Shown here in pieces: positions 3,893-49,542 of a DNA stretch of 64,000 nucleotides (position 1 is the first letter of the stretch; every line of letters starts with the position of its first letter). A program made the position numbers and the translations under genes. Source of the stretch: a virus (Duplodnaviria; Heunggongvirae; Uroviricota; Caudoviricetes); IMG/VR virus record IMGVR_UViG_3300021256_000061; one strand, written 5' to 3'. The notes beneath the pieces were generated by a model. That model saw only the letters and a program-made list of their open reading frames with translations. It was not told where the DNA came from and searched no databases.

Positions 3893-4348
3893 TTACTTTA
3901 TGCCCAAAACTTGTTTAAGGGCGGTTTTTACTTTTGCTGAATATTCGTTGTCATTCCGCCATCTTGCTCCCCAAAACTCGAAAAAGTATTCGATTTCGGT
4001 TTCGCTCTTGGCACGAAGATGCGTGAGCCTTGCACAAGCACCAGAGGACATAAACCCACTACGGTCATCTTCAAGGAGGAGCGAGCGTTTGAGTTTCACT
4101 TCTTTTGTCCCGAATTTCTGATAGAACATCTTGACGAGTTCGGCTTTGGTATAATCAATCTTGTGGATTGTCCCATAGACTTCTATGACGGTGCTGCTGC
4201 TGTCCTTGACCTCTCCGAACTTTTCTTCAAGGTATTTACGGACTTTGTTCCCAGCATCAATACCAGCGGTCACACTGTCCTCAACAGTTACCTGATAAGT
4301 ACCTTTGTACTCTAACGGCCAGTTGTAATTCACTATAAATGTTCTCAT
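3893..4348 (-). CDS. hypothetical protein (151 aa)
   Basis: ORF; promoter motif 4385-4400 upstream. Confidence 0.5.
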   Translation of the reverse strand: MRTFIVNYNWPLEYKGTYQVTVEDSVTAGIDAGNKVRKYLEEKFGEVKDSSSTVIEVYGTIHKIDYTKAELVKMFYQKFGTKEVKLKRSLLLEDDRSGFMSSGACARLTHLRAKSETEIEYFFEFWGARWRNDNEYSAKVKTALKQVLGIK

Positions 4349-4451
4349 AATGTGTTGTGTTTCGATTACATCTTTGTATAATCAAAGACCGTGCCAAACT
4401 TTCTCGGAGTGACACGGTCTTTGCCGTTTTTAGCATTTTTAACGCAAGGCG

Positions 4452-4580
4452 TTATGCGTTTTCAGTCTCACGGAGAAACTCGTCCTTGCAATAGTCTGTA
4501 AGTGAATAGTAGAGTTCCGTAAGGAGTTCCACTTTCTCCCCATTGGATAGTTTGTTGAATTCTTTCTTGATTGTGTCCAT
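4452..4580 (-). CDS. small protein (42 aa, MDTIKKEFNKLSNGEKVELLTELYYSLTDYCKDEFLRETENA)
   Basis: ATG at 4578-4580 complement; promoter motif at about 4613-4630, 25 nt upstream; preferred over overlapping 68-aa ORF 4439..4645 in another frame. Confidence 0.4.
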   Translation of the reverse strand: MDTIKKEFNKLSNGEKVELLTELYYSLTDYCKDEFLRETENA

Positions 4581-4654
4581 ATTGTTATTGTTTGATTACG
4601 ATATAGGATATAACAAAGACCGTGCCAAACCTTTCGGAACAACACGAAAATTTG

Positions 4655-4909
4655 TTAGATTTCGTGAGTACAACTTTTGAAATGTTCTAAATCGTAAGAA
4701 GAATCGGTGATATCTTCAGCCGTAGCATAGAACGCATCTTCATCATCTTGAAAAAGTCCTGCGTTTTCAGCCATCTGTACGGCATCGGCTTCTTCAGTGG
4801 CATCGCACTTGACGGCAAATGAATAGCCGTGTCTGCCTGCAACATTGATTGAAAAAATCCTCTTACTTTTCATCGGTAACTTCTTTTGATTTATACACTC
4901 CCCAGCCAT
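4655..4909 (-). CDS. hypothetical protein (84 aa)
   Basis: ORF track; ATG verified. Confidence 0.45.
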   Translation of the reverse strand: MAGECINQKKLPMKSKRIFSINVAGRHGYSFAVKCDATEEADAVQMAENAGLFQDDEDAFYATAEDITDSSYDLEHFKSCTHEI

Positions 4910-5039
4910 CGGCTACATACCAATCGTGGGCTTTCTGCTCTGCATCGTCTTGCGATTCGGCTTCAATGGTGACAACTCTTGTCCTATTCTCGTTGTAGGG
5001 TAATCCCAAAACGAAAAGGGTTACTTCGTAGGTTTTCAT
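4863..5039 (-). CDS. small protein (58 aa, MKTYEVTLFVLGLPYNENRTRVVTIEAESQDDAEQKAHDWYVADGWGVYKSKEVTDEK)
   Basis: Below ORF-track length cut-off; ATG preceded by conserved leader aaagtaatagagtt; overlaps start of downstream gene in another frame. Confidence 0.3.
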   Translation of the reverse strand: MKTYEVTLFVLGLPYNENRTRVVTIEAESQDDAEQKAHDWYVADGWGVYKSKEVTDEK

Positions 5040-5046
5040 AACTCTA

Positions 5047-5211
5047 TTACTTTTTATCAGTTATCCAATTATGGCTGATGGTAAGATTAAGGATAGTGAT
5101 TGAAAATCCCCTATCAATCGTTCCGTATTCAGTTTCGCTCTTGTGCCAATAGATAGTTAAGAGAGCGAATTTAAGTTCACACTTAAAAGGGTTTGTGAAA
5201 TATACATACAT
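5047..5211 (-). CDS. small protein (54 aa; trimmed from 95-aa ORF to internal Met MYVYFTNPF...)
   Basis: Upstream gene ends at 5246; internal ATG at 5209-5211 preceded by conserved leader aaagtagtagagtt. Confidence 0.35.
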   Translation of the reverse strand: MYVYFTNPFKCELKFALLTIYWHKSETEYGTIDRGFSITILNLTISHNWITDKK

Positions 5212-5245
5212 AACTCTACTACTTTTAATGATGAAATGGAGGGGG

Positions 5246-5674
5246 TTATTCCTCCTCCAAATCATCAAAGGTTTCGTCTGCTTTGAGAACTCTGCCATTG
5301 TTTTCTTCATCGGCATATTCCACGATGTCCTCAAGCATAGTGAGCAGGTAGTTCATTTGACTTGCCTCAAAGAGGTCGGTTTCATCCCACTCTGCGAACT
5401 CGTAGTCATCGGTGTCCTTCATTTCAAGGATAAGACTGCGAGAGCCATCGCTATTCTTTTTGATTGTGAGGGTGTCCACATAGAGTGCCCTACCGTAACC
5501 ATCGTCATCGCAGGCAAAGAACAAACACCTATCGGTGTAGTCATTCGCCCAATACTCATAGAGATTGACGGAAGTGATTTTTCGGGAGTCAAGCAGGTCG
5601 AAGATTGCTCGGAGGATTTCTTGGCGCACAAAATCAAGAGCGCGTGCAAATAGGGGAGTTTCTTTAACTACCAT
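5246..5674 (-). CDS. acidic protein (142 aa), candidate DNA mimic
   Basis: ORF; C-terminal D/E-rich; promoter motif at about 5713-5728. Confidence 0.5.
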   Translation of the reverse strand: MVVKETPLFARALDFVRQEILRAIFDLLDSRKITSVNLYEYWANDYTDRCLFFACDDDGYGRALYVDTLTIKKNSDGSRSLILEMKDTDDYEFAEWDETDLFEASQMNYLLTMLEDIVEYADEENNGRVLKADETFDDLEEE

Positions 5675-5728
5675 ATCAGTTGTTGTTTATTGGTTTACGA
5701 CTATACTACTTCAAAGACCGTGCCACGA

Positions 5729-6253
5729 TTAGAGGAACCGCAGTCGCAGAGCAACAATTTCACCCTTTGAGTTGTATCCTGCGTAGAGGTCATAAGCACC
5801 GTCACCAAGTCCACTACTTGCTACTGCTCCGACAATCTTCTTGTTGCTTTTGACCATACCGCAGTTGTGCTTTTTGTCATTGAGGGTAATATTGCAGACA
5901 TCTTGATACCACTGCTCGGATTCGGGGGTGTCAATGTTCGGGTGATACTTGTCATAGTTTTCCCTTTCAAAGATACCACACTGACCGCTATCTACACCGC
6001 ACCAACCGATAAGGCTTGTTGCTTTTTTCTTGGGGCAGGATTCGTGATTGATTGTGAGTTCTACAACTCTTTCACCCCACCACTCGTCAATTACGCCATA
6101 CTTGGCTTTGGCGGTGTAAGTCCCCTCTTTTAACTGAACCCCACGATTGTGACCGTTGATAGATTCGTAGCAGGGGTCGGAAACAATAACCTTGCCATTG
6201 GCAGGCTTGAAATTTCCAAGTACCGTTTGCGTTACCGTAATTCTCATATTCAT
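5729..6253 (-). CDS. hypothetical protein (174 aa, Cys-rich)
   Basis: ORF; promoter motif at about 6283-6298. Confidence 0.5.
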   Translation of the reverse strand: MNMRITVTQTVLGNFKPANGKVIVSDPCYESINGHNRGVQLKEGTYTAKAKYGVIDEWWGERVVELTINHESCPKKKATSLIGWCGVDSGQCGIFERENYDKYHPNIDTPESEQWYQDVCNITLNDKKHNCGMVKSNKKIVGAVASSGLGDGAYDLYAGYNSKGEIVALRLRFL

Positions 6254-6301
6254 TGTGTTTGTTGGTTTACACGATTACTTAATCAAAGACCGTACCAAAC
6301 C

Positions 6302-6736
6302 TTACAGATAATTTTCCAAACCTGCAAGAATTGAATAGATTGTTGCGGAACGCAGGACACAATCATCGTAGATGCTGGAGAAGTTTCCGAGGTTGGATAG
6401 TGCCTTGTTGATTTCTTCCAAATCCTTTCCCTCAAAATCATAGAGGTATTCAAACCAATACTTGTTCTCGTACTCGTAGTTATCCACATTGTCCTTTGTG
6501 AAAAGGAATACCTCACCATCGTGCTCGCGTAGCCCATAGATAGTAACATCTTCTATCTCTCCGCCATAGTCATTGAAAGCAACAAGCCGAGGTTTCTCAC
6601 TCGTGGGGAGTGTGGGTATGAATCCACCTGCATCGCGGATAATTCCTGCAAGGGTGTCTATTGAAGTATCACGAACTGACTTAAGAAAGTCAAACGCAGT
6701 GCGTACCTTACCGATAAGTGTGTTATTCGTTTCCAT
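6302..6736 (-). CDS. hypothetical protein (144 aa)
   Basis: ORF. Confidence 0.5.
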   Translation of the reverse strand: METNNTLIGKVRTAFDFLKSVRDTSIDTLAGIIRDAGGFIPTLPTSEKPRLVAFNDYGGEIEDVTIYGLREHDGEVFLFTKDNVDNYEYENKYWFEYLYDFEGKDLEEINKALSNLGNFSSIYDDCVLRSATIYSILAGLENYL

Positions 6737-9024: not shown

Positions 9025-9495
9025 TTAACAATATTCGCCATCGTCAATTACTCTTGCGATTTCGTCCCTATCTTCAAGGGGAAGTCCGAAGAAACTGACA
9101 TAATTGAGGTCACACTCGTCTATTTCTTTGACAGGTTTACTGCTGTTGCTATCATCGGTAGTTATGACCTTTATATCCTCGTTGCCCTCGTCAAGCATAA
9201 AGCCAACTGCGGTTGAGCCATCGGAAAGGCAGAACGGATTTTCTATATCAGCGATTTCTCCGTCCTCAAATGTTGATTTGACATCGAAGTAGGTCTGCTC
9301 GCAATATCTTGCTCTTTCTTCATCGCTGGGCTTGTTGTCGGCCTTGTTGAGCCAATCTTCATCTACGAAGTAGGCGGAACTGCCGAAATCTTCTATGCCC
9401 TTATCATCGTTGATAAGATAGGAGTTTTGTCTAAACCCTGCTTTGGTCATAAGGTCTTGGCTCTCGGGCCAAGTTACTACTACATACTTTCCCAT
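9025..9495 (-). CDS. acidic protein (156 aa), candidate DNA mimic
   Basis: ORF; D/E-rich; promoter motif at about 9528-9543. Confidence 0.5.
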   Translation of the reverse strand: MGKYVVVTWPESQDLMTKAGFRQNSYLINDDKGIEDFGSSAYFVDEDWLNKADNKPSDEERARYCEQTYFDVKSTFEDGEIADIENPFCLSDGSTAVGFMLDEGNEDIKVITTDDSNSSKPVKEIDECDLNYVSFFGLPLEDRDEIARVIDDGEYC

Positions 9496-9604
9496 TGTTG
9501 TTGTGTTTATTGGTTTATACTTTTACCTATGCAAAGACTATGCCATTGTTTCTTAAAGATAGGGGGAGCATTGGGTTTTCACTCCCCCTTTTGATATGGA
9601 AAGA

Positions 9605-10333
9605 CTACATTGCAAGGTTGTAAATTTTCTCGCCCTCTGCGTTTCTTTTGAACTCGGAGTCTAACTTATAGTTCTGCTCATAGACCTTATTGAGAAGTTT
9701 TCCGCACTCGCTTTCGGGCATCTGCATATACTTCTTTGCATCTTCCACAAGGGAACGGACTGCATCTTCGGCATTGTGCCGTTTCTGCTTGTATTCATCA
9801 TCGCCATAGCGATTGTAAGGTCGGTCATTGAGAACGAGAGTGTTTATGCGTTTGTAGAGGGGCATCACATAGGGGCGGTTCTCATTGTACTTCTTCCTTG
9901 CTTTGATAAGGTCGGAAGAAAGCAGGGGGACAATGGCTTTGATAGCCTTGCGGAGTTCATCTGCGGAAATGTTGAGGGGAGAATGTACGCACTCGCGCCC
10001 CCAAGAACCACCGACATCTTCCCATTTGGCATTGATGGTATATCCACCGACAAGATAGCGAGCAGGTACATATTCAGTTCCATCGGTGCTATCTCCCTGC
10101 CAATAGACCTTTGCATAAAGTTGGTTGGTTTTGGAAAGGTCAAAACCCTCTATGGAGTGATTCCAATTGAAGTTATCGTGCACCACATCGTGTGAGAAAT
10201 TGATTTCGGTGCGGTATTCATCTACGAACCCAAATTTCTTCATAATTTCGGGGATTACTTCAAGGGACTTGTAGATGTTGTTTCCGTTAAGGATTTCGCG
10301 ATAATACTTCGCAGTTTTTCTTACTTGTGCCAT
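9605..10333 (-). CDS. hypothetical protein (242 aa)
   Basis: ORF; upstream sense sequence TGGCACACCTTTTGCT (sigma-54-like) at about 10360-10378. Confidence 0.55.
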   Translation of the reverse strand: MAQVRKTAKYYREILNGNNIYKSLEVIPEIMKKFGFVDEYRTEINFSHDVVHDNFNWNHSIEGFDLSKTNQLYAKVYWQGDSTDGTEYVPARYLVGGYTINAKWEDVGGSWGRECVHSPLNISADELRKAIKAIVPLLSSDLIKARKKYNENRPYVMPLYKRINTLVLNDRPYNRYGDDEYKQKRHNAEDAVRSLVEDAKKYMQMPESECGKLLNKVYEQNYKLDSEFKRNAEGEKIYNLAM

Positions 10334-24903: not shown

Positions 24904-25665
24904 TTAATATTCCATTTCAAGGAGGTGTTTTTCCATAAGGAATTCATTAAGAATCTCGGGGTATTTCACAATCTGCTCGGCGAAGGCTTCTGCGTCCTTA
25001 TAGACATCCCAAAGCGGTTTTTCGATATTATGCTCCTTGAGGAAGTCATAATCGGTAAGATGGTGATATGTTTCGAAGAAAAGCTCACCACCGTCAAGGT
25101 TATCACCATCTACGTTGAATTTATTGTAGAGTTCGTTGATTGATTTCTCCACATAATCCGCGGTAATATTCTCTGGGGCGGTAATTTTTACCGTATCGAG
25201 AAGGTTACTGAGATGATAGAGCAATGTGTAAAGACGGTAATCGTTATTTACTTCGATTGAGAAGTTCAGCTGTTCGTTATCGTCGGGATTAAATGCGGGA
25301 AATACCCACTCTTCCTTGAAGCCTTCAAAATAGCAGTCGGCAATGTCTTTTCCGTAGCCGTCTGACACCAAATCCTTAGGAATAATTACCCCTTCCTTAG
25401 GGCGATACGGTAGTTGAACCGATACTTTCCAATCATAGAAATTATCCCTGCAGATAATCTTGACGCCATTTCTCATGGTAAAGCCGTAGACGGGGAGGGT
25501 TATGGATTTTGAGCGGTGAGTTGAAATGACGAATGCAGGAACATGGAGAAGATAATTGCAAACGCTGTCGCGCATAAAGACTTCCTGCCGTTCCGCTGCG
25601 TTCTTATAAATCATCTTATCGTCGACTTCATCGTTACGAAGCCATGAAAGGAGCAACTGTTTCAT
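24904..25665 (-). CDS. hypothetical protein (253 aa)
   Basis: ORF. Confidence 0.5.
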   Translation of the reverse strand: MKQLLLSWLRNDEVDDKMIYKNAAERQEVFMRDSVCNYLLHVPAFVISTHRSKSITLPVYGFTMRNGVKIICRDNFYDWKVSVQLPYRPKEGVIIPKDLVSDGYGKDIADCYFEGFKEEWVFPAFNPDDNEQLNFSIEVNNDYRLYTLLYHLSNLLDTVKITAPENITADYVEKSINELYNKFNVDGDNLDGGELFFETYHHLTDYDFLKEHNIEKPLWDVYKDAEAFAEQIVKYPEILNEFLMEKHLLEMEY

Positions 25666-25789
25666 ATTTTTAAAATTTAAAGTTTTCGTTCATTTTCGTC
25701 ATATAATAGACTTGAGAAGGCTTATTCCTTCGTATGAATCTTTATATGCAAAAATCATGCCAAAAGGTAATAAAACCGTATAAAGAAAC

Positions 25790-27037
25790 TTATAAAAACC
25801 TATGAGTTTCAATTTCTTGCTTCATCCTATCACTACTTTTTAGTGCCTTGTTTCCAAGTCTGTCATCCATAGTTGGATAGTCCGCAAGCGTAAATTCGGG
25901 AGTACGGCTCCCTATTATTCTTAAACCCTCTTCAAGTATATTCAACGCAGCATTGTAATCTCGTTCAATAATTTCTCCACAAACAGGACAAACCCATTGT
26001 CTGTCACTTAATTTAAGTTCCTTATTGATATAACCACAATTATGACATGTCTTACTTGAAGGATAGAATCTGTCAACATAAACTATATCCCTGCCATACC
26101 ACAATGCTTTATATTCAAGCATCCTTCTGAATTCTCCGAAGTTCATTTCAGATATGGATTCAGCAAGCTTATGATTCTTAACCATTCCCTTCACATTCAA
26201 ATCTTCCATCACTATGACTTGGTTATCATCAAGCAATGTGTTTGATACTTCGTGAAGATAGTTAAGTTTCTGGTTTCTTATCTTTTCATTCAACTTAGCA
26301 AGTTTGATTCTTGCTTTATTTCTATTGTTGCTTCCTTTCTGTTTTCTTGAAAGTTGTCTTTGTAATTTCTTTAGCCTATTCACTTCAGATTTCTTAAAGT
26401 GAAGATTACTGAAGCATTCACCTTCTGATGTTACAACAAAATCCTTAATGCCTAAATCAATTCCAACAGCACTATTTGTTGCTTTTAATTTCTTCCTGAA
26501 ATCACCATCAACAAGAATTGAAAGGTAATATTGTCCAGAACAGTTTCGTGATAGTGTGGCTGAACGGATTCCGTCTTTATTCTTCACAAGATAATTCACA
26601 TATTCATCGGAGCATTTAAACTTAATGTTGTGGATGTTGGCGAGTGATAATTTATGTGTTGAATAATCATTCCTTTTTGATATCGCTTCCAAAGGAAACC
26701 TGCATGATTGTTTATTGTCATGTTTAGATTTATACTTCGGAAATCCTTTATGCTCATTAAAGAAATGAGAATAAGCATCCAATAAATCACGAATAGATTG
26801 TTTCAATACTTTAGTATTCTGTTCCTGCAACCACGAATATTTCTCATCTTTTGTAAGTTCATTATGAAAGAAATGCCCAAGAGTTGTCAGGTTTTCGGAA
26901 GTTTCGTTTTCTTTATATGTGTTTATTTTCTTTTCAAGACATTGATTATAGACAAACCTATAACACCCAAGCAATTTATTAATTTGTATTGCTTGAGTCT
27001 TATTTGGATATAATCTTATTTTCAATGCCTTTAACAT
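25790..27037 (-). CDS. tnpB: TnpB (IS200/IS605/IS607 OrfB family RNA-guided nuclease), 415 aa
   Basis: N-terminal RLYPNKTQ...FVYNQ; RuvC-I GIDLG, RuvC-II VMEDLN, zinc finger CHNCG...CPVCG, Ruv[13 protein letters not shown]; all catalytic residues present. Confidence 0.85.
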
Positions 27038-27402
27038 TTTGCATTTTCTTCATGTAATTTTAGAAGTCTTTCTCCGATTACTTCCCTTATTTTAAGAATC
27101 TCATTAGCACAATCATCCTGTAGTTCATCAGCAATATATTGCGCTGAGCACAAATGTTCATACAACGAACCATATGTTGAAGGCTTTGTTTCATTTTTAA
27201 TGAACGCATCAAGCATTTTCTTTGTATACCTTCTGTGTCCTCCAGCGGTTCTAAGAGGTTTTAATTTCCCTTCCTTATCCCATAATCTAAGGGTATCATC
27301 AGAAACATAAAGGTATTTAGCGGCTTGTTTTATTCCAAGCATTGTTTCTTCACTATTCATTTCTCTGAGTTTCTTTGTCACTGTATTTATTTTCGTTTTC
27401 AT
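27031..27402 (-). CDS. IS607-type TnpA N-terminal MerR-like HTH domain only (123 aa; no serine-recombinase catalytic domain)
   Basis: [22 protein letters not shown] resembles (from memory) the N-terminal signature of IS607-type TnpA; no YxRVSS catalytic motif in the remaining 55 aa. Confidence 0.55.
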
Positions 27403-27592
27403 ATATAAATAGTTTAAACAATGTAAAAATACGAAAAAACTTTCAGAAAAAGAAATAATTTTTCGTATTTTTTAATAAAATTTCACTTAACAGTTAAGTA
27501 CCCCAATTAAATGAGTATTTTATGTTTTTATCATGTGGCAAATATACAAATGTTTTTAATAGAATAAAACTATTTATTTTTATAAAATAACC

Positions 27593-28501
27593 ATGAAATT
27601 TTATTTAAGCAAGCCAGGAGAGGTATATGAAGCATCGCCTTTTTCGGTTTCTGTCGGGAACGTGCATTGTTTTTACACTACGACGGATTCATTTCCTATT
27701 GTTATTACTTTAGGAAACAGGGTTTGTTTTGGTGTTCCTGGCACCGAGCATCATGATTTATTGACACATATTGGTGAAACCCAAACAAAAGCCGAAGGGC
27801 GTTTTTGGAAAGGTCAAAATGTTTTGACTTTTTGGGATGAAAATGTTGATATAACCAAGGAAAACGTAAAATTGGTCGTTGATGCACTTCGTAAAAGGAT
27901 TGGTATAAATCCAAATGTTATTCGTCTGTTTCTTGATTGCGGTTTTGACGAAAACGAAAACGGTGAGCGAACGACCAATCTTATTGCAGAAATGACCCCT
28001 GAAGAATATTTGTCATTAAATATTTATGGTGAGAACACCAAATATTTTTGGGATTTATATAAAAAGAAAAATAAGCTTTCGGATGAAAACGGGGCTAATG
28101 TCGCTTCGAATGGTATGAGTACCAAAGACATCTGGAGACATTATCAAAATATGGATGAAAGTATGAAAAATACAATTAGACTTAACGAATCTCAGCTAAG
28201 GTGCATTGTGGCTGAGTCAGTAAGGCGAGCATTAAAAGAAGATGTTGATGATTTGATGGGGATGTATGATGGCGAGGACGGACCAACAAATGAGCCTGAT
28301 TACTATGAAGACGACTACTTGGAAGATATCATGGTGTATGATTTAATTGCCAAATTGGGATTATCTGAGGACAAGAAACATGAACTTTTGTCTGCAACAT
28401 TGTATAATGGTAATGATGAACCAATTGGAAAATTAAATGATTTGCACGTAAAGTACGACCCGAGGGACGGTCGTAACGGCGGTCTCGTTGGCACTTTCTA
28501 A
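27593..28501 (+). CDS. motif-family protein (302 aa)
   Basis: Internal IRLNESQLRCIVAESVRRALKED motif; AACTATTTATT 15 nt upstream. Confidence 0.5.
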   Translation: MKFYLSKPGEVYEASPFSVSVGNVHCFYTTTDSFPIVITLGNRVCFGVPGTEHHDLLTHIGETQTKAEGRFWKGQNVLTFWDENVDITKENVKLVVDALRKRIGINPNVIRLFLDCGFDENENGERTTNLIAEMTPEEYLSLNIYGENTKYFWDLYKKKNKLSDENGANVASNGMSTKDIWRHYQNMDESMKNTIRLNESQLRCIVAESVRRALKEDVDDLMGMYDGEDGPTNEPDYYEDDYLEDIMVYDLIAKLGLSEDKKHELLSATLYNGNDEPIGKLNDLHVKYDPRDGRNGGLVGTF

Positions 28502-41899: not shown

Positions 41900-44800
41900 A
41901 TGAAAGTCATACACAAAAGAAGTAATGGCAATTCTTTGCCTGCAGCAAGCGCAATTACATATGGTGAAATAGCTGTTAATTACAAAAGTGGCGGTGAGGC
42001 GCTTATAATTAAAAACGATAGTGATGAAATAGTAACCTTTGGGACCGATAAAAAAAATCCATTCGAACCAGGGACAGGAGTTAATAGTGCGCAATTAAAA
42101 GGAACTGGTGCAATAGCAAGTGGTGAAAATTCTGTGGCGGAGGGGGCAGATAACATAGAAGGGCAAACTACACCAGATGCTGGGGATGAGTTATTATATG
42201 CTAAGGCAGAGGGTTATGCCTCTCATGCTGAAGGCGCAGCCCATGCTATCGGTAAATACAGTCACGCAGAGGGGGGTGGCGACAGTATCCAAGAAGGATA
42301 TAAAACAGTCCCAACCGCTGAGGGCGCGTATTCTCATGCCGAAGGCACACATACTTATGCGAAAGGCTCTCGCTCACACGCTGAGGGCCTCTTAACTCAG
42401 GCTCTCGGTGACGGCTCACATGTCGAGGGCTATAAAACAATAGGCAGGAATGCTAATGACCACGCAGAAGGCCTTGAAACCGTGGCGGAGGGATGGGGCT
42501 CCCATGCTGAGGGGGAATTATCCGTGGCGTCTGCCGCAAGGTCTCATGCAGAAGGGTATAACACAAAGACGGGAGGGAGTGATACGGCTAATACGAGAAC
42601 GGCTGGTACCGTCGCTGGCGCATATTCCCACGCAGAAGGCAATGCATCAATTGCTAATGGTCAGGCAGCACATGCTGAAGGAACAAATACTTTGGCATCA
42701 AACCATTCAAGTCATGCAGAAGGCAATAAAACAATAGCATCTGCTCCTCAATCTCATGCTGAAGGCATAAATACACAGGCTACTGCAAATAGAGCTCATG
42801 CTGAGGGCAACGGCAGTATTGCGAGTGGAGAAAATTCTCACGCAGAGGGAGTTAATACTACAGCAATAGGGAACGGTGCTCATGCCGAAGGTAATAATAC
42901 TATTGCCCAAGGGACGCAGTCTCATGCGGAAGGATTATCTACTGTGGCATCTGGTGAGCGTAGTCATGCTGAAGGTAACGGGACAACGGCGACTGGTAGT
43001 TTCTCCCATGCGGAAAACCGTACCACAATAGCAGGGGGACACTCTTCCCACGCAGAGGGATACCAAACCGTAGCAGGTACCGCGGAGAAACAGGCATCTA
43101 ACGGTGATACAACTGACGGCTATTTTACTCATGCTGAAGGAAATGGAACGAGAGCATATGGCAATAGCTCCCATGCTGAAGGAAAAGATACACAAGCAAA
43201 TGGATTGGCATCTCATGCCGAAGGCTTAAGAACTGTTGCAAGTGGTAGTATTAGTCATGCAGAGGGTGCTGATACCATTGCTTCAGGTGAAAGGGCACAC
43301 GCTGAAGGGAACGGTACAAGGGCATCTGGCGGTTATTCACATGCCGAAGGTGATGCCACTTTTGCTTCTGGTTCTTCTTCACATGCTGAGGGCTATAAAA
43401 CAAAGGCAAGTGGCGATAGTTCTCACGCCGAGGGCGCCGCAACAACTGCATCTGATTCTTGCTCACATGCAGAAGGTGGAAGTACTACTGCATCTGGTCC
43501 TTACTCACACGCAGAAGGTTTCAATACTACTGCATCTGGTGCAAGGTCACATGCAGAGGGAAACTTTACTACTGCATCTACGGCGGCCTCACATGCAGAA
43601 GGTGGAAGTACTACTGCATCTGGTCCTTACTCACACGCAGAAGGTTTCAATACTACTGCATCTGGTGCAAGGTCACATGCAGAGGGAACTTCAACACATA
43701 AATATAATGGAGAAGAAGTACACACTTATGGGTCTTATTCTCTCGCCAGTGGTGAATCATCACATGTTGAAGGCAGTAATACTAAGGCAACTGGTAATTG
43801 TTCGCATGCAGAGGGAAATGAAACGTGGGCATCTGGTCAACATTCACATGCAGAAGGCTTGTCATCTGTCGCATCTGGCAACTATTCACATGCAGAAGGC
43901 TCGTTATCTGTCGCATCTGGAGACTATTCACATGCAGAAGGCGATTATACAGTTACTTACAATCATGCTGAGCATGCAGGTGGCCGATGTAATATATCGC
44001 ATAAGGCTTCAGATGATTTTGGCAATCCTGGCAATACACTTGTATCTTATGGTATAGGCTATGTTGAAGGAGAGGCTAATGTACACAAGAATGCCTTCGA
44101 GATAATGCAAAATGGCGATGCCTACTTATATGGCGTCGGAGGGTATGACGGAACCAATGCAACGGCAAGCACATCAAACACATTACAACAATGCTTGAGT
44201 AAAATAGGCAATTTAACTGAAATTACATGGTCTGCACTCAAATCACTTCGTGACAGCAGCGGATTAACCCCTGGCATGCAATATAGGATTACTGATTATA
44301 ACACTACGACAACTCAGGCCAATACCCAATCTGCGGGGCATCAGTTTGATATCATCGTTGTTGCAGATGATAACCATACTCTTAATGAAAATGCAAGGGC
44401 TATAAAGCATGCAGGAGATACTTATTTCACTGGTGCTACGTTGGAAGCCTGGGAATTAAAATATGATATTGATAACGATACTACTAAATATAGCTGGGCT
44501 GATGCAACTAATGGTAAAGGTGTTATCTATTGGATGAAGGATGAATTTAATAATGAATGCCCTTATGACTTTAAGAATATTCAGTTCAAACGTAAAATAT
44601 CTCTTTCAAATGGATACCCTGAATTAGACTTAACTGGTGGCACAGATACCTGGGTCTTTACATTTGCCGCAACATCATATCATATAACAAATGACATATG
44701 GTCGGATTTGAAAGATGGTTCTTTGGAACCTCCATATGGTCATGAAAGTGATAAAAATACTAGTACTTATCATGATAATGTCATGGGAAGATATATAAAA

Positions 44801-45778
44801 GTTTATGATGATGTTGACGAAGATAACACTAAATGTGGCATACAGTATTTAAATGATAATGTCTTTTTAGGTTATTGGGAAGAAGTCGGTAGTGATGACC
44901 CAGAAAATGTCCCATATTATCATGCATATTGCTCATATGGATGTACTTTTGGAGATAACTGCAACTCCAACACATTTGGGAACAGCTGCAACTACAACAC
45001 ATTTGGGAACAGCTGCAACTACAACACATTTGGGAACTACTGCGAATTCAATACATTTGGGAACAGCTGCAACTCCAACACATTTGGGAACAGCTGCAAC
45101 TACAACACATTTGGGGACTACTGCAACTACAACACATTTGGGAACTACTGCGAATCCAACACATTTGGGAACTACTGCAACTACAACACATTTGGGAACA
45201 GCTGCAAATTCAATACATTTGGGAACAGCTGCTACTCCAACACATTTGGGAACAGCTGCGAATTCAATACATTTGGGAACAACTGCAACTCCAACACATT
45301 TGGGAACAGCTGCAACTCCAACACATTTGGGAACAGCTGCAACTACAACACATTTGGGGACTACTGCAAGTCCAACACATTTGGGAACAACTGCAACTCC
45401 AACACATTTGGGAACAGCTGCAACTCCAACACATTTGGGAACAAGTGCAACTCCAACACATTTGGGAACTACTGCGAATCCAATACCTTCGGTGAATCTA
45501 TTCAATATTTTATCATAGGTAATGCTATGAATGCCACGACATTGGAACAAACAAAAAGTTATGTGCGATATCTCATTGTTGAAAATGGTGTTCAAAATGT
45601 AAATGCCTATTGTACAGGTACTACAAGTTCTTCAAGTTATTGTCAAAACATTAAGATTGGCTTAGGGCTGAAAGGAACATCTTCAAGTAATAGGCTGCAA
45701 ATAGATATTACAACTCAGATTGGTGCATCTACGAGTGTCACTTATCAGCCAGCAAACAGTCAAATCATATCAGTGTAA
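41900..45778 (+). CDS. giant tail-fibre/spike-like protein 1 (1292 aa): about 40 Hep_Hag-like 14-aa SHAEG repeats, central globular domain, then about 20 copies of a 9-aa Cys repeat
   Basis: 14-residue periodicity S-H-A-E-G-x-x-T-x-A-x-G-x-x across residues about 90-690; conserved C-terminal block shared with fibre 2. Confidence 0.7.
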   Translation: MKVIHKRSNGNSLPAASAITYGEIAVNYKSGGEALIIKNDSDEIVTFGTDKKNPFEPGTGVNSAQLKGTGAIASGENSVAEGADNIEGQTTPDAGDELLYAKAEGYASHAEGAAHAIGKYSHAEGGGDSIQEGYKTVPTAEGAYSHAEGTHTYAKGSRSHAEGLLTQALGDGSHVEGYKTIGRNANDHAEGLETVAEGWGSHAEGELSVASAARSHAEGYNTKTGGSDTANTRTAGTVAGAYSHAEGNASIANGQAAHAEGTNTLASNHSSHAEGNKTIASAPQSHAEGINTQATANRAHAEGNGSIASGENSHAEGVNTTAIGNGAHAEGNNTIAQGTQSHAEGLSTVASGERSHAEGNGTTATGSFSHAENRTTIAGGHSSHAEGYQTVAGTAEKQASNGDTTDGYFTHAEGNGTRAYGNSSHAEGKDTQANGLASHAEGLRTVASGSISHAEGADTIASGERAHAEGNGTRASGGYSHAEGDATFASGSSSHAEGYKTKASGDSSHAEGAATTASDSCSHAEGGSTTASGPYSHAEGFNTTASGARSHAEGNFTTASTAASHAEGGSTTASGPYSHAEGFNTTASGARSHAEGTSTHKYNGEEVHTYGSYSLASGESSHVEGSNTKATGNCSHAEGNETWASGQHSHAEGLSSVASGNYSHAEGSLSVASGDYSHAEGDYTVTYNHAEHAGGRCNISHKASDDFGNPGNTLVSYGIGYVEGEANVHKNAFEIMQNGDAYLYGVGGYDGTNATASTSNTLQQCLSKIGNLTEITWSALKSLRDSSGLTPGMQYRITDYNTTTTQANTQSAGHQFDIIVVADDNHTLNENARAIKHAGDTYFTGATLEAWELKYDIDNDTTKYSWADATNGKGVIYWMKDEFNNECPYDFKNIQFKRKISLSNGYPELDLTGGTDTWVFTFAATSYHITNDIWSDLKDGSLEPPYGHESDKNTSTYHDNVMGRYIKVYDDVDEDNTKCGIQYLNDNVFLGYWEEVGSDDPENVPYYHAYCSYGCTFGDNCNSNTFGNSCNYNTFGNSCNYNTFGNYCEFNTFGNSCNSNTFGNSCNYNTFGDYCNYNTFGNYCESNTFGNYCNYNTFGNSCKFNTFGNSCYSNTFGNSCEFNTFGNNCNSNTFGNSCNSNTFGNSCNYNTFGDYCKSNTFGNNCNSNTFGNSCNSNTFGNKCNSNTFGNYCESNTFGESIQYFIIGNAMNATTLEQTKSYVRYLIVENGVQNVNAYCTGTTSSSSYCQNIKIGLGLKGTSSSNRLQIDITTQIGASTSVTYQPANSQIISV
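43463..43687 (+). repeat. 99-bp exact direct duplication (43463-43561 and 43588-43687) inside fibre 1
   Basis: Both copies encode SHAEGGSTTASGPYSHAEGFNTTASGARSHAEG. Confidence 0.8.
44940..45490 (+). repeat. 27-bp tandem repeat, about 20 near-perfect copies, in frame (9-aa unit NTFGN-x-C-x-x)
   Basis: caactacaacacatttgggaacagctg reiterated; every unit has one Cys. Confidence 0.9.
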
Positions 45779-45993: not shown

Positions 45994-48900
45994 ATGGATA
46001 TTAGACTAAAATCGGGTGAAAGACTTAATTTAGAGGGAAGCGCCATTATCAATGGTAATGTAACCGCATCCACAGTTGTTTTAAAAAATGGTACATCATC
46101 TCAATTCCTTAAGGCTGATGGAAGTGTGGATAGTAATAGTTATGCAACGACCTCCCAACTTTCAGGAAAACAAGATACTCTCGTTAGTGGAACAAACATT
46201 AAGACTGTTAACGATAGTTCAATCCTTGGTTCTGGAAATATAACCGTAGGTACAATCACTGGTATTAACATGAACGGTACCAGTAAGGGCACATCGGGGG
46301 TGGTAGACCTTGGAACTGTGATTACCTCACATCAGGATATATCGGGGAAAGAAAATATCGTCAATAAAACGACGAGTCTTTCCTCGGCTTCTACTGATAC
46401 TCAGTATCCAAGCGCAAAGGCGGTATATGATAGTACTGTTTTTGAAAAGGGCAGTGGAACCAATAGTGCACAACAGAAGAGAAGCGGCGCAATCGCTAGT
46501 GGAGCTAATAGCGTAGCAGCGGGGCAAAACACTAAAGCCATTGGAGATAATTCATTTGCAGAAGGAGGTGGTTCTACAGCTAATACTGTAAATGCTCATG
46601 CTGAGGGATATAACACTTTAGCTCAGGGAAACGCTTCTCACTCAGAAGGATTTTCGACTCAAGCAATAGGTAGTTATTCCCATAGTGAAGGTAATACTTC
46701 TATTGCTTCTGGTGATTATGCATCTCATGCCGAAGGATGGCACACAACAGCTTCTGGCGCACAATCCCACTCTGAGGGATATAGCACTTTAGCTCAGGGA
46801 AGCTCTTCTCACTCAGAAGGATTTTCGACTCAAGCAATGGGTAGTTGTTCTCACAGTGAAGGTAATACTTCTATAGCTTCGGGTGACTACGCTCATGCAG
46901 AAGGATGGCACACAACAGCTTCTGGCGCACAATCCCACTCTGAGGGAAATCAAACAAGCGCATCTGGTAACACTTCACATGCTGAAGGTTCTAATACTAT
47001 CGCATCTGGTAGTTACTCACATTCTGAGGGACAAAATACTCAAGCAAAACAAAATAATGCTCATGCCGAAGGTTCTGGTACTATAGCAGATGGTCATTCT
47101 GCTCATGCCGAAGGTTACAACACACAAGCAATAGCTAATTTTGCCCATTCCGAAGGAAGTAATACAGTTGCAAGTTGGATGTGTGCTCATGCCGAAGGTG
47201 ATGGTACAACCGCAAGTAAAGATGCTGCCCACGCGGAAGGAAAAGGGACCGTTGCTTCGGCGCCAAGAGCTCATGCAGAGGGTAGACGAACGACGGCATC
47301 GGGTTATGCTGCGCATAGTGAAGGTAGTAAGTCCCTGGCTTCTGCAATGGGTGCTCATGCCGAGGGTGGTTTTACGGATGAAAGCGGAGAAGCGGAAATT
47401 GAATATGTGGGTGGTACAGCTGCTAGTGTGGCTTCTCATGCCGAAGGTGTCGAAACTTTTGCTGGGCAGAAGGGCTATAAATACACGACCACAGGTTCTG
47501 TTACTACCCAATTAACGTTGACATCAGTAGATGGACTTGCGGTTGATGATGTCGTGTCAATTGTAAATGACTATAAATACCCCGATTGTTCTACAATCAC
47601 AACAATCAATGGCAATACTGTTACATTTGATTCCTTACCATTCACTGAAATAATATCAGGTTTAACTGACTTTGATGATTATGTTGTGTATGTGTCAGCA
47701 AAACCAACAGTGGGTGATGTTGAATTGGGTATAGCAGCACATGCCGAAGGAGTAGGAAGTAAGTCGCAGAATTGGGCAGCTCATGCAGAGGGTAGGGATA
47801 CAAAAGCTTACGGAGAATACTCACACACTGAGGGTAGAGAAACAACGGCACAATATGCTTCTCATGCTGAAGGCAGAAAAACAGAAGCAATTGGTACCTA
47901 TAGTCATGCTGAAGGTTTCTCAACTCATTCAACAAACGAGGCAACCCACACCGAAGGTAGAGATACTACAGCCAGTGCAAAATTCGCCCATTCTGAAGGG
48001 TATATGAACACCGCATCAGGAGAAGCTTCACATGCTGAAGGCGGTAATGGTTCTGCAATTGGCAATTCATCCCATAAAGAAGGTAATAAGAGTGTTGCTT
48101 ATTCTAAAAATTCACATGCAGAAGGGGAAGAAACTATTGCTGGTGACGCGAATAATCCAAACACAAGCGGAAAAGGCCAAGCGGCTCATGCCGAAGGGTA
48201 TCAAACAAAAGCAATAGGTAATTATACGCACGCCGAGGGCGCCATAACAACAGCATCTGGTAACAACTCTCATGCGGAGGGTGTTAGAACTACAGCATCT
48301 GGTTCTGGGGCACACGCAGAAGGTACTTCTACGAATGTTTATGATGGTTCTACCCCGATAGACCCCGCGGCTACTTATACGTTGGCATCAGGTGGCTACA
48401 GTCACGCGGAGGGTGGAAATACTAAAGCAATTGCTTCTGGCGCACATGCTGAAGGAAATTTTTCATTAGCTTCTGGACTATATTCTCATGCAGAGAATCA
48501 ACAAACACAGGCGACAAATCAGGCGGCTCATGCCGAAGGGGTAAGAACAACTGCAAGTGGCGCGGCAAGTCATGCCGAAGGCGCTGATACAATTGCGTCA
48601 GGTGACAGAGCACATGCCGAGGGAGACCACACTACTGCCTCTGGGCTTCATTCTCATGCAGAAGGGTACAACACCGAAACAGGTGGGAATGCTACCGCTA
48701 ATACAAAAACAGCAGGCACCTCATCTACAAACGGTGCTTATTCCCATGCAGAAGGTAATGCGACAATAGCAAACGGAGTTAATAGCCACGCGGAAGGTAT
48801 GCTTACATTTGCGAAAGGGACTTCTTCACATGCTGAGGGCTATAAAACAAAGGCAAGTGGCGATAGTTCTCACGCCGAGGGCGCCGCAACAACTGCATCT

Positions 48901-49542
48901 GGTTCTGGGGCACACGCAGAAGGTGGAAGTACTAATGCATCTGGTTCTTACTCACACGCAGAAGGTGGAAGTACTACTGCATATGGTTCTTACTCACACG
49001 CAGAAGGTTACAGTACTACTGTATCTAGTTATTACTCACACGCAGAAGGCTATAAGAATACAGCACAAAATACAGCAGAACATGTAGGGGGAAAGTACAG
49101 CGTATCCCACAAAGCATCAGATACTTACGGCAGTAGCGGAAACACCACGTTTGCGCACGGTATAGGCTCATCTACTTCAGATAGAAAGAATGCATTTGAA
49201 ATAATGGAAAGTGGCGATGCCTACTTATATGGTGTCGGAGGATATGATGGGACTAATGCAACGGCAAGTACATCTCAAAGACTTCAAGACATATTAAGCA
49301 TTTTAACTCCTGTTACCATAGAAGGTACAATAAGCCTTGATTCATCAACAGGTCATTATAGATTCACTTCAAACGATGGGGTGAATCCTGTAGACTTTGA
49401 ACCATTCTTTGTTAGTGGTGGTACAATTACTCTAACTATTGATTCTGCCACCCATTGCAGGGTAATATCATATAACTCTGACTTGCGAAAAATGATTGCA
49501 ATAAACCCTGATGATGGTAAACTCATATATTGGGTTGGATAA
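45994..49542 (+). CDS. giant tail-fibre/spike-like protein 2 (1182 aa), paralog of fibre 1 with SH(A/S)EG repeats
   Basis: Same 14-aa repeat; shared C-terminal block NAFEIM(Q/E)(N/S)GDAYLYGVGGYDGTNATASTS; about 80-bp patch identical to fibre 1 (48823-48903 vs 43374-43454). Confidence 0.7.
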   Translation: MDIRLKSGERLNLEGSAIINGNVTASTVVLKNGTSSQFLKADGSVDSNSYATTSQLSGKQDTLVSGTNIKTVNDSSILGSGNITVGTITGINMNGTSKGTSGVVDLGTVITSHQDISGKENIVNKTTSLSSASTDTQYPSAKAVYDSTVFEKGSGTNSAQQKRSGAIASGANSVAAGQNTKAIGDNSFAEGGGSTANTVNAHAEGYNTLAQGNASHSEGFSTQAIGSYSHSEGNTSIASGDYASHAEGWHTTASGAQSHSEGYSTLAQGSSSHSEGFSTQAMGSCSHSEGNTSIASGDYAHAEGWHTTASGAQSHSEGNQTSASGNTSHAEGSNTIASGSYSHSEGQNTQAKQNNAHAEGSGTIADGHSAHAEGYNTQAIANFAHSEGSNTVASWMCAHAEGDGTTASKDAAHAEGKGTVASAPRAHAEGRRTTASGYAAHSEGSKSLASAMGAHAEGGFTDESGEAEIEYVGGTAASVASHAEGVETFAGQKGYKYTTTGSVTTQLTLTSVDGLAVDDVVSIVNDYKYPDCSTITTINGNTVTFDSLPFTEIISGLTDFDDYVVYVSAKPTVGDVELGIAAHAEGVGSKSQNWAAHAEGRDTKAYGEYSHTEGRETTAQYASHAEGRKTEAIGTYSHAEGFSTHSTNEATHTEGRDTTASAKFAHSEGYMNTASGEASHAEGGNGSAIGNSSHKEGNKSVAYSKNSHAEGEETIAGDANNPNTSGKGQAAHAEGYQTKAIGNYTHAEGAITTASGNNSHAEGVRTTASGSGAHAEGTSTNVYDGSTPIDPAATYTLASGGYSHAEGGNTKAIASGAHAEGNFSLASGLYSHAENQQTQATNQAAHAEGVRTTASGAASHAEGADTIASGDRAHAEGDHTTASGLHSHAEGYNTETGGNATANTKTAGTSSTNGAYSHAEGNATIANGVNSHAEGMLTFAKGTSSHAEGYKTKASGDSSHAEGAATTASGSGAHAEGGSTNASGSYSHAEGGSTTAYGSYSHAEGYSTTVSSYYSHAEGYKNTAQNTAEHVGGKYSVSHKASDTYGSSGNTTFAHGIGSSTSDRKNAFEIMESGDAYLYGVGGYDGTNATASTSQRLQDILSILTPVTIEGTISLDSSTGHYRFTSNDGVNPVDFEPFFVSGGTITLTIDSATHCRVISYNSDLRKMIAINPDDGKLIYWVG

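Follow-up and report, generated by a model that had tools for sequence, protein, structure and literature searches.

The closest described relatives of the locus analysed here are the autonomous insertion sequences (IS) of the IS607 family, whose hallmarks are a GG terminus, a (G)GG target, and the lack of both terminal inverted repeats and target duplication (PMC6188088, PMC13565253). The element in question lies in a 64,000-nucleotide stretch of a tailed-phage genome (Caudoviricetes; IMG/VR record IMGVR_UViG_3300021256_000061), referred to here as the window. It shares with autonomous IS607 elements on other contigs (L118, L096, L097, L109, and L110) a left end (LE) with a TTAACTGTTAA tip and a 14-nt inverted repeat, a tnpB gene whose product is 85 to 92% identical in amino acid sequence, an omegaRNA, a TATACGG right end (RE), insertion at (G)GG without duplication, and the type of MerR-like DNA-binding domain (DBD) found at the N terminus of the TnpA transposase. 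Where it differs is in having no transposase catalytic domain, no separate 73-aa leader open reading frame (ORF), and no intermediate ORF, and in carrying a helical hairpin after the helix-turn-helix (HTH). As judged from sequence comparison, the window element derives from an IS607-family transposon, is non-autonomous, and lies at a GGG^T site; the leader/tnpA region in it has been replaced by one small gene, whose 123-aa product we call HTH-short.

Elements of the IS1341 type, and solo TnpB elements generally, resemble the window element in combining TnpB and an omegaRNA without a transposase, and are presumed to rely on TnpB-based retention or homing with TnpA acting in trans, but they consist of tnpB alone, whereas the window element adds a maintained gene derived from the TnpA DBD and a full LE. 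In the IS605 family, the ribbon-helix-helix protein Arc binds the promoter of its own element and represses tnpB (bioRxiv 10.64898/2026.09.24.754181). Like HTH-short, Arc is a small element-encoded DNA-binding protein beside tnpB, and by analogy a repressor role is proposed for HTH-short; unlike HTH-short, which has a MerR-type winged helix and both replaces TnpA and derives from it, it has a ribbon-helix-helix fold, belongs to another IS family, and coexists with TnpA. CvkR of the CRISPR-associated transposons (CASTs) of type V-K is a MerR-family winged-helix protein that controls Cas12k, a descendant of TnpB, together with transposition genes in a mobile element, though it has no detectable specific sequence relation to HTH-short and functions in a Tn7-like CAST and not in an IS607 element. 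Transposase end-binding domains without catalysis are also known from IS1 InsA, IS911 OrfA, and Tn5 Inh, which bind element ends or the promoter, repress expression or transposition, and are made from the transposase gene itself, by frameshift or alternative start, within autonomous elements; HTH-short, in contrast, is a separate mosaic gene in an element without a transposase. The best winged-helix match is BldC (PDB 6AMA and 6AMK; phmmer E = 3e-5, Foldseek E = 7e-4), which is similarly small and has no effector domain, but HTH-short scores 39 bits against the NCBIfam BldC cutoff of 77, and BldC is a Streptomyces developmental regulator without the C-terminal hairpin. In the literature searched we found no IS607 element described as encoding an HTH-only relative of TnpA. 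While IS607, TnpB, and omegaRNA are well known, what is new is that the DNA-binding head of the transposase, joined to a new module, has taken the place of the whole enzyme in a conserved form that is spread in mostly phage-like metagenomic contigs.

The HTH protein at the transposase position

The protein encoded upstream of tnpB had been described, from the sequence alone, as a TnpA reduced to its HTH, carrying the GGHRRY motif of IS607 TnpA N termini and no recombinase domain. The TnpA-type HTH, the motif, and the missing domain are all borne out, but mere reduction does not describe the gene, which is a mosaic: the start of the leader is followed by an HTH of the TnpA type and then by an unrelated helical module that is conserved. 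The 16-residue leader match has an hhalign probability of 80.6%. The winged helix that follows matches the PF00376 MerR HTH across residues 24 to 59 (E = 1.6e-11; 44 bits against a cutoff of 28) and TnpA residues 1 to 54 (hhalign probability 99.8%), and the NCBIfam transpos_IS607 profile is matched only at positions 1 to 50 of 187, with 28.5 bits against a cutoff of 110. Of the TnpA chain, only residues 3 to 52 are matched by a counterpart in HTH-short. The GGHRRY motif is invariant in the HTH-short family and is found also in full IS607 TnpAs. The DBD of the window protein is identical to that of TnpA P0094 at 34 of 40 positions, and two other family members are identical to TnpAs at 40 of 40; because some DBDs are thus identical to that of a full TnpA, it follows that tnpA, in its 5' part, and the 3' module of the short type have recombined repeatedly, and the near-identity of the DBDs suggests that HTH-short should recognise the DNA that the cognate transposase recognises.

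In the C-terminal module, residues Y77, L80, Y81, E82, L84, A87, I102, G110, and L114 are invariant. An AlphaFold2 model of HTH-short (overall predicted local distance difference test score, pLDDT, of 82.7) places the module behind the winged helix as a two-helix hairpin with pLDDT ~95. The top Foldseek matches of the winged helix are BldC and DNA-bound MerR regulators, and superposition of the full-length model on MerR regulators gives a root-mean-square deviation of ~12 Å, a hairpin being predicted where those proteins have a single long coiled coil, and the effector domain being absent. Comparison of the module with the recombinase catalytic domain gives an hhalign probability of 0.2%, comparison with the 73-aa leader ORF finds only a 6-residue GD(I/L)YEH match (probability 2.9%), and no Pfam family matches it. 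A catalytic domain hidden by a further frameshift would have made this an ordinary IS607 element, but neither a serine-recombinase catalytic domain nor a remnant of one was found in any frame of 25600 to 27700 or of the 64-kb window by tblastn (word size 2) and hmmsearch.

Database searching recovered ~90 clusters of 100- to 125-aa proteins that combine the HTH with the module, and such proteins recur beside TnpB in many metagenomic contigs that are for the most part phage-like; full TnpAs rank below these short clusters, matching through the HTH alone. A profile of the module by itself matched 23 clusters in 1.84 billion representatives, all real matches being small proteins, and 185,579 reference genomes contain no copy of the module; tblastn of HTH-short against 50,697 deposited phage genomes gave only distant, HTH-only matches. 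Relative to the L108 copy, which is 87.6% identical at the nucleotide level and lies in a different genomic context, the ratio of non-synonymous to synonymous substitution rates (dN/dS) of HTH-short is 0.085 for the whole gene, 0.053 for the HTH, and 0.077 for the module, with 21 synonymous and 9 non-synonymous changes, comparable to the 0.065 of TnpB, which indicates that HTH-short is under purifying selection and selectively maintained.

The gene is also tied to tnpB. Wherever at least ~0.8 kb past the gene is preserved, tnpB lies immediately downstream (17 of 17 sampled loci), and this linkage holds across TnpBs that are mutually only 55 to 59% identical, with the 7-nt overlap of the two genes (ATGTTAA in the window) usually kept. 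Identical HTH proteins are paired with TnpBs that are 74 and 92% identical, and co-variation between TnpB and the module was not detected. Three 5'-truncated copies (L002, L004, and L008), which lack the LE and the first ~32 codons of the leader, share their HTH protein, at 100% identity, with the complete copy L005, while their TnpBs are only 74% identical. A 78.7-kb phage-like contig (L010) has three TnpB genes in 10 kb (229-1392, 5309-6508, and 9368-10303) and a short HTH gene beside one of them only. Of the seven TnpB clusters that reach 85% identity, six were examined for genomic context: four come with TnpA, one with the short HTH (L107/L108), and one is a solo TnpB (L101). TnpA and the short HTH are alternatives at one position. 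Among 80 TnpB loci in IMG/VR, none has a short HTH protein and one has a recombinase domain, 3.5 kb away.

Element ends, TnpB, and the predicted omegaRNA

Similarity between the window and 10 independent insertions on other contigs starts at ~27503 and ends at 25775/25776, with unrelated flanks on either side, and the left boundary is uncertain by 2 to 3 nt because the G-run at 27501-27504 is common to target and element. The IS607-type insertion that the initial annotation placed at 25750-27450 is real, its ends, its GG junctions, and its near-identity to autonomous IS607 copies all agreeing, though the LE reaches ~50 nt further and the element runs from ~25776 to ~27501/27503. The GC content is 0.32 in the element and ~0.40 in the flanks. 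The insertion is intergenic: on one side lies gene 24904..25665 (-) and on the other, divergently oriented, gene 27593..28501 (+) of a large phage. The 10 insertions compared, all of which have unrelated flanks and lie outside the L114 subfamily, share the left junction flank-GGG^T(A/G/T)nTTAAC (^ marking the boundary). The right junction reads TATACGG^T, a terminal TG replacing GG in the solo jumbo-phage copies and in the autonomous L097. The window flanks contain no target duplication and the element has no inverted terminal repeats. G-rich transposon-associated motifs (TAMs) have been reported for IS607, in agreement with the TTGGG flank seen here and with the G-rich flank 5' of the LE in the compared insertions (PMC6188088, PMC13565253).

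The LE is 96.6% identical in nucleotide sequence to that of the autonomous L118 and 94% to that of L096. Its 14-nt inverted repeat has arms that are 100% complementary, separated by a 20-nt spacer, and comparison of LEs finds it kept in TnpA-bearing and HTH-only elements alike, making the pair of arms a candidate binding site for the TnpA-type HTH. In the L010/L011 subfamily the repeat differs from that of the window, and the recognition helix differs too.

TnpB had been thought intact, and all of its RuvC and zinc-finger residues are indeed present: the RuvC triad D194, E278, and D360 aligns with D191, E278, and D361 of ISDra2 TnpB (8EXA/8BF8), and the zinc finger is complete (C331-x2-C334/C350-x2-C353). 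The 415-aa protein contains the Pfam domains HTH_OrfB_IS605, OrfB_IS605, and Cas12f1-like_TNB, matches the ISDra2 TnpB structures (PDB 8EXA, 8BF8, and 8H1J) with E = 4e-66, and scores 332 bits with NCBIfam guided_TnpB against a cutoff of 100. Both subfamily models fall below their cutoffs (IS200_TnpB, 381.5 against 425; IS607_TnpB, 197.6 against 350), and by sequence the protein is nearer the IS200/IS605-type model, though housed in IS607-type elements. Its closest relatives in a large protein collection, the 85 to 92% identical TnpBs mentioned above, are carried by autonomous, HTH-only, and solo elements. A TldR-type repressor, which is a nuclease-dead TnpB without element ends, is excluded, the triad being intact and both ends present.

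The final ~140 nt of the element are conserved whether they are coding, as in the 415-aa TnpB subfamily, or lie past the stop codon, as in the 380-aa subfamily. RNAalifold and an explicit count of base pairs back four helices in this region, with the 19 pairs formed in 98.1% of cases compared with 87.2 ± 1.1% in shuffles, none of 500 shuffles reaching 98.1%; compensatory changes occur at 8 pairs, and slid controls pair at 32 to 64%. An internal hairpin is preserved in shape over at least seven stem sequences, its loop being a GNRA-like tetraloop or, in L010/L011, a pentaloop, and the synonymous rate (dS) of tnpB falls from 0.89 to 0.27 in the codons that overlap the RNA. A structured omegaRNA scaffold is predicted from this comparison at the tnpB 3' end, abutting the element boundary. 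The initial annotation had expected the omegaRNA at that end of the gene, but its interval of 25700-25830 was about 90 nt off the scaffold at 25776-25916, and the caaaaatcatgccaaa motif that it noted there is not a feature of the element but flanking DNA that would supply the guide (25756-25775). This predicted guide flank, read from 25775 down to ~25756, is unique in the window. The structure was recovered by comparison only, Rfam and single-sequence folding being uninformative: folding of the region gave z = -0.86, which is not significant, and the covariance-model search that had been proposed found no family match: no part of the window reached the gathering threshold of any Rfam family, and the element gave no relevant match at E ≤ 10. 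The Rfam class reported for IS607 TnpB omegaRNA is RAGATH-18.

Table 1. Features of the window element and its flanks; positions are those of the window.
Feature	Position	Strand	Basis or remark
Whole non-autonomous IS607-family element, ~1.73 kb	25776..27501 (27501/27503)	-	Similarity limits against other insertions
Target (G)GG core and G-rich TAM-like flank (TTGGG toward element)	27502..27506	-	5' of LE
LE, non-coding	27403..27501	-	Begins GTACTTAACTGTTAAGTG directly after target GG
Inverted repeat, outer arm, 14 nt, AAAAATACGAAAAA in element orientation	27459..27472	-	Repeat search
Inverted repeat, inner arm, TTTTTCGTATTTTT	27425..27438	-	Ends 23 nt upstream of HTH-gene start codon
HTH-short gene, 123 aa	27031..27402	-	Domain, family, and selection evidence; overlaps tnpB by 7 nt
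Leader-ORF-derived first 16 codons	27355..27402	-	Same as start of 73-aa leader ORF before tnpA in autonomous relatives
MerR-type winged helix, residues about 21-70	27193..27342	-	Residues about 18-71 homologous to IS607 TnpA N-terminal DBD
C-terminal helical hairpin module, residues 72-123, ...IRxxxGxxLLK	27034..27189	-	Takes the place of the recombinase catalytic domain
tnpB, 415 aa	25790..27037	-	RNA-guided nuclease by domain match; RuvC and zinc finger intact
Predicted omegaRNA scaffold and RE, ends TATACGG	25776..25916	-	Overlaps last 42 tnpB codons
Predicted omegaRNA stems	25898-25912; 25884-25888 with 25816-25820; 25876-25880 with 25827-25831; 25869-25872 with 25833-25836	-	
Predicted omegaRNA variable tetraloop hairpin	25847-25858	-	
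Predicted guide-templating flank TTTTATTACCTTTTGGCATG	25756..25775	-	Outside element, directly 3' of RE; TnpB/omegaRNA rule (PMC13565253)
Reconstructed empty site			Joined flanks ...CATTTAATTGG + TTTTATTACCTTTTGGCATG...

Relatives of the element and its surroundings

Autonomous relatives have the layout LE, 73-aa leader ORF, TnpA (MerR HTH plus Resolvase, 204 to 207 aa), sometimes an extra ORF, TnpB, and RE. The closest of them, L118, lies on a 286-kb contig binned as a Bacteroidales metagenome-assembled genome; across tnpB and RE, the window is 93.6% identical to it in nucleotide sequence and 88% identical to L096, and both encode a MerR plus Resolvase TnpA. The conserved 73-aa leader ORF (MKTKIN...GDIYEHTFEI...) occupies 4981-5202 in L096, 4603-4824 in L097, and 4780-5001 in L005; it precedes tnpA or the HTH gene in complete elements and is shrunk to 11 codons in L010/L011. 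In L097 a 199-aa cargo ORF with no Pfam match lies between tnpA and tnpB.

L010 and L011 have in common only the 1.72-kb element, at 90% identity between unrelated flanks, and the window likewise has only the element in common with L107/L108, at 87.6% identity. On these alignments the HTH and TnpB unit behaves as a mobile element in its own right, which has inserted at several sites; the copies, of two HTH and TnpB element types, have precise junctions of the IS607 kind. Two samples each yielded both an autonomous and an HTH-only element, L097 with L107 in ERZ28633456 and L098 with L108 in ERZ28633659.

Several relatives have unusual junctions. In L107 (1222-2982) and L108 (3506-5266) the canonical LE tip is missing and the 14 nt GGTTTTGAATGTTA are present at both junctions, so that over 12 nt the predicted guide is a match to the left junction of its own element; the junction could be a scar of repair or homing, or a self-targeting configuration. 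The solo TnpB of L101 (5820-7300), 92% identical to that of the window, belongs to an internally deleted IS607, with ~9 nt of the LE tip (GGGGTACTT) fused to the 3' part of the intermediate ORF, and the gene that received the insertion is tandemly repeated, so that ~60 nt upstream of the element there is a near-copy of the guide target with GGGGG in front of it. L002 and L004 (element at ~4120-5875) are collinear at 94% through the element and lose similarity exactly at the RE, placing a recombination breakpoint at the TnpB target position. Another solo TnpB, 70% identical, is found on IMG/VR contigs of 331 and 416 kb (L016, 3657-5688; also L017), where it is split into 128-aa and 249-aa ORFs and lies within an apparently split RNA-ligase gene, whose N-terminal part (78 aa) is upstream and whose C-terminal part (125 aa) is downstream; in a jumbo phage, this could represent an insertion that is intron-like (IStron) or that splits the gene. 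For the window locus itself, a reading as an IStron or group I intron was dropped, there being no Rfam intron match and the insertion being intergenic.

The empty site in related phages, proposed for comparison, was searched for and not recovered. The sole syntenic relative, L001, is too diverged for this use at 47% amino acid identity, no relative of the other flanking gene was found in IMG/VR, the exact LE-tip pattern had no match in IMG/VR, and megablast of the locus against deposited phages had none either. Two contigs of the SRR873596 assembly that are 100% identical to the window break within the element, L103 starting at window position 25886 and L105 ending at ~27030; breaks on either side of tnpB suggest that tnpB is a multi-copy repeat in that metagenome. 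Elsewhere in the window, the AT-rich flank between the element and gene 24904..25665 contains a sub-threshold Rfam match to the thiamine pyrophosphate (TPP) riboswitch (25674-25755, +; 22.5 bits against a gathering threshold of 54.3, E = 0.15), which is almost certainly due to chance, and two giant ORFs lying side by side, paralogues of 1292 and 1182 aa (41900-45778 and 45994-49542), each contain 9 to 11 repeats matching phrog_25468, a family of unknown function.

Proposed role of the HTH protein and its alternatives

HTH-short probably dimerises through its hairpin and binds the 14-nt inverted repeat of the LE, much as the TnpA DBD reads subterminal sites. Because the LE, of ~100 nt, is all that travels upstream of the operon while the flanks differ at each insertion, the promoter should lie within the LE, and HTH-short bound there would regulate its own operon, HTH-tnpB, the two genes of which are translationally coupled; Arc in IS605 and, among type V-K CASTs, the MerR-type CvkR offer analogies. 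Once bound, HTH-short may in addition affect how TnpA reaches the end. TnpB and the omegaRNA would cut element-free sites that combine the G-rich TAM with a match to the right flank, and recombinational repair would then restore or copy the element, leading to retention or to homing between co-infecting phages. The element is incapable of self-movement by the known mechanism, and moves to new, unrelated sites would need full-length TnpA supplied in trans by autonomous relatives with the same ends. We regard this overall account, a non-autonomous IS607 derivative in which HTH-short autoregulates the operon, TnpB serves retention or homing, and TnpA acts in trans, as probable.

One important consideration is that several observations weigh against this account. 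The module occurs also in a few small proteins without an HTH, so its role could be protein-protein contact and not dimerisation, and the most divergent family member, P0092, has 109 nt left on its contig past the gene with no tnpB start among them. A scan for sigma-70-type promoters gave hits no more frequent than in shuffled sequence, and the ATACG common to LE and RE is by count too short to be significant alone. Since the window contains no TnpA, mobilisation in trans rests on co-occurrence in metagenomes. As for the empty site, searches for proteins exactly matching those of the two flanking genes brought up occupied copies only, all of them 100% identical (L102-L106), and the joined-flank pattern is absent from IMG/VR and from JGI metagenomes.

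The initial annotation had offered two readings, a decayed IS whose TnpB persists or a domesticated HTH-TnpB pair. In the former, the 123-aa ORF would be a functionless tnpA stump left by a deletion, TnpB alone being maintained, which is in keeping with the complete absence of the catalytic domain and with the existence of solo-TnpB (L101) and 5'-truncated (L002 and L004) relatives. It is contradicted by the dN/dS of 0.085, by a C-terminal half that consists of a non-TnpA module with invariant residues across the ~90 recurring clusters, and by the same architecture beside TnpBs only 55 to 59% mutually identical, and we consider it very unlikely. A regulator or partner of TnpB fits better, although "domesticated" is doubtful, since the HTH and TnpB unit has intact ends and occurs at unrelated insertion sites. 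Equally improbable, to a high degree, is that HTH-short is a phage regulatory or excisionase-like cargo protein, a mere passenger of the element whose targets are phage or host promoters: matches to excisionase-type HTH in PHROG and TIGRFAM and a Foldseek match to the mycobacteriophage Xis fold would suit such a role, but the gene sits exactly in the tnpA slot with the DBD of TnpA, lies beside tnpB in all 17 loci with enough sequence past the gene, and is absent as a free gene from the deposited phage genomes and the reference genomes searched.

Two further alternatives retain a role for HTH-short at the element itself. It could be a modulator of transposition, a DNA-binding-only mimic of TnpA that occupies the subterminal sites and either blocks formation of the TnpA filament or synapse, a dominant-negative action like that of Tn5 Inh or IS1 InsA, or marks the ends for preferential mobilisation by a foreign TnpA. 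The identity or near-identity of its DBD to those of contemporary TnpAs, the presence of autonomous and HTH-only elements in the same samples, and the insertion of HTH-only units at new sites all point in this direction, as does the assembly of TnpA on multiple subterminal repeats through its DBD (PMC6188088). The TnpA on which it would act is absent from the element and the window, and the conserved translational coupling to tnpB points instead to a role in TnpB expression, leaving modulation unlikely as the explanation, though it is compatible with operon autoregulation and not exclusive of it. Alternatively, the module might contact TnpB or its ribonucleoprotein directly, to tether it to an end, to shield the element's own junctions, or to limit its toxicity as an inhibitor. 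The constant position of tnpB downstream in the 17 informative loci with the 7-nt overlap kept, the rarity of the module and its confinement, in the contexts examined, to small TnpB-linked proteins, and the 12-nt match of the L107/L108 guide to its own LE junction, which would call for protection, argue for such contact; that TnpBs at 85 to 92% identity operate with TnpA or alone, without HTH-short, and that no co-variation of TnpB and module was detected argue against it, and we judge direct partnership quite unlikely.

A bolder form of partnership would make HTH-short, TnpB, and the omegaRNA a TnpA-independent selfish phage module, in which HTH-short is a dedicated TnpB partner that tethers or shields the ends or gates TnpB, and which spreads by RNA-guided homing between co-infecting phages. 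We think this unlikely; if true, it would define a new functional class of TnpB accessory protein, beyond a mere repressor.

Cas12 descends from TnpB elements, and the locus bears on how such elements are regulated and persist once their transposase is gone. In the lineage described here the transposase was not simply lost but replaced by a conserved protein that retains its DNA-reading head and is co-translated with TnpB. If HTH-short represses the promoter or competes with TnpA, as the autoregulation account would have it, it would represent, after Arc, a second and independently evolved case of self-regulation in an OMEGA system (for obligate mobile element-guided activity), and would offer a naturally occurring pair of protein and operator with which a compact RNA-guided nuclease could be controlled. 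It would also provide a defined phage system for the trans-mobilisation and homing of IS607 derivatives, in which elements of the L118/L096 type and HTH-only elements come with known ends, a TAM-like flank, and a guide.

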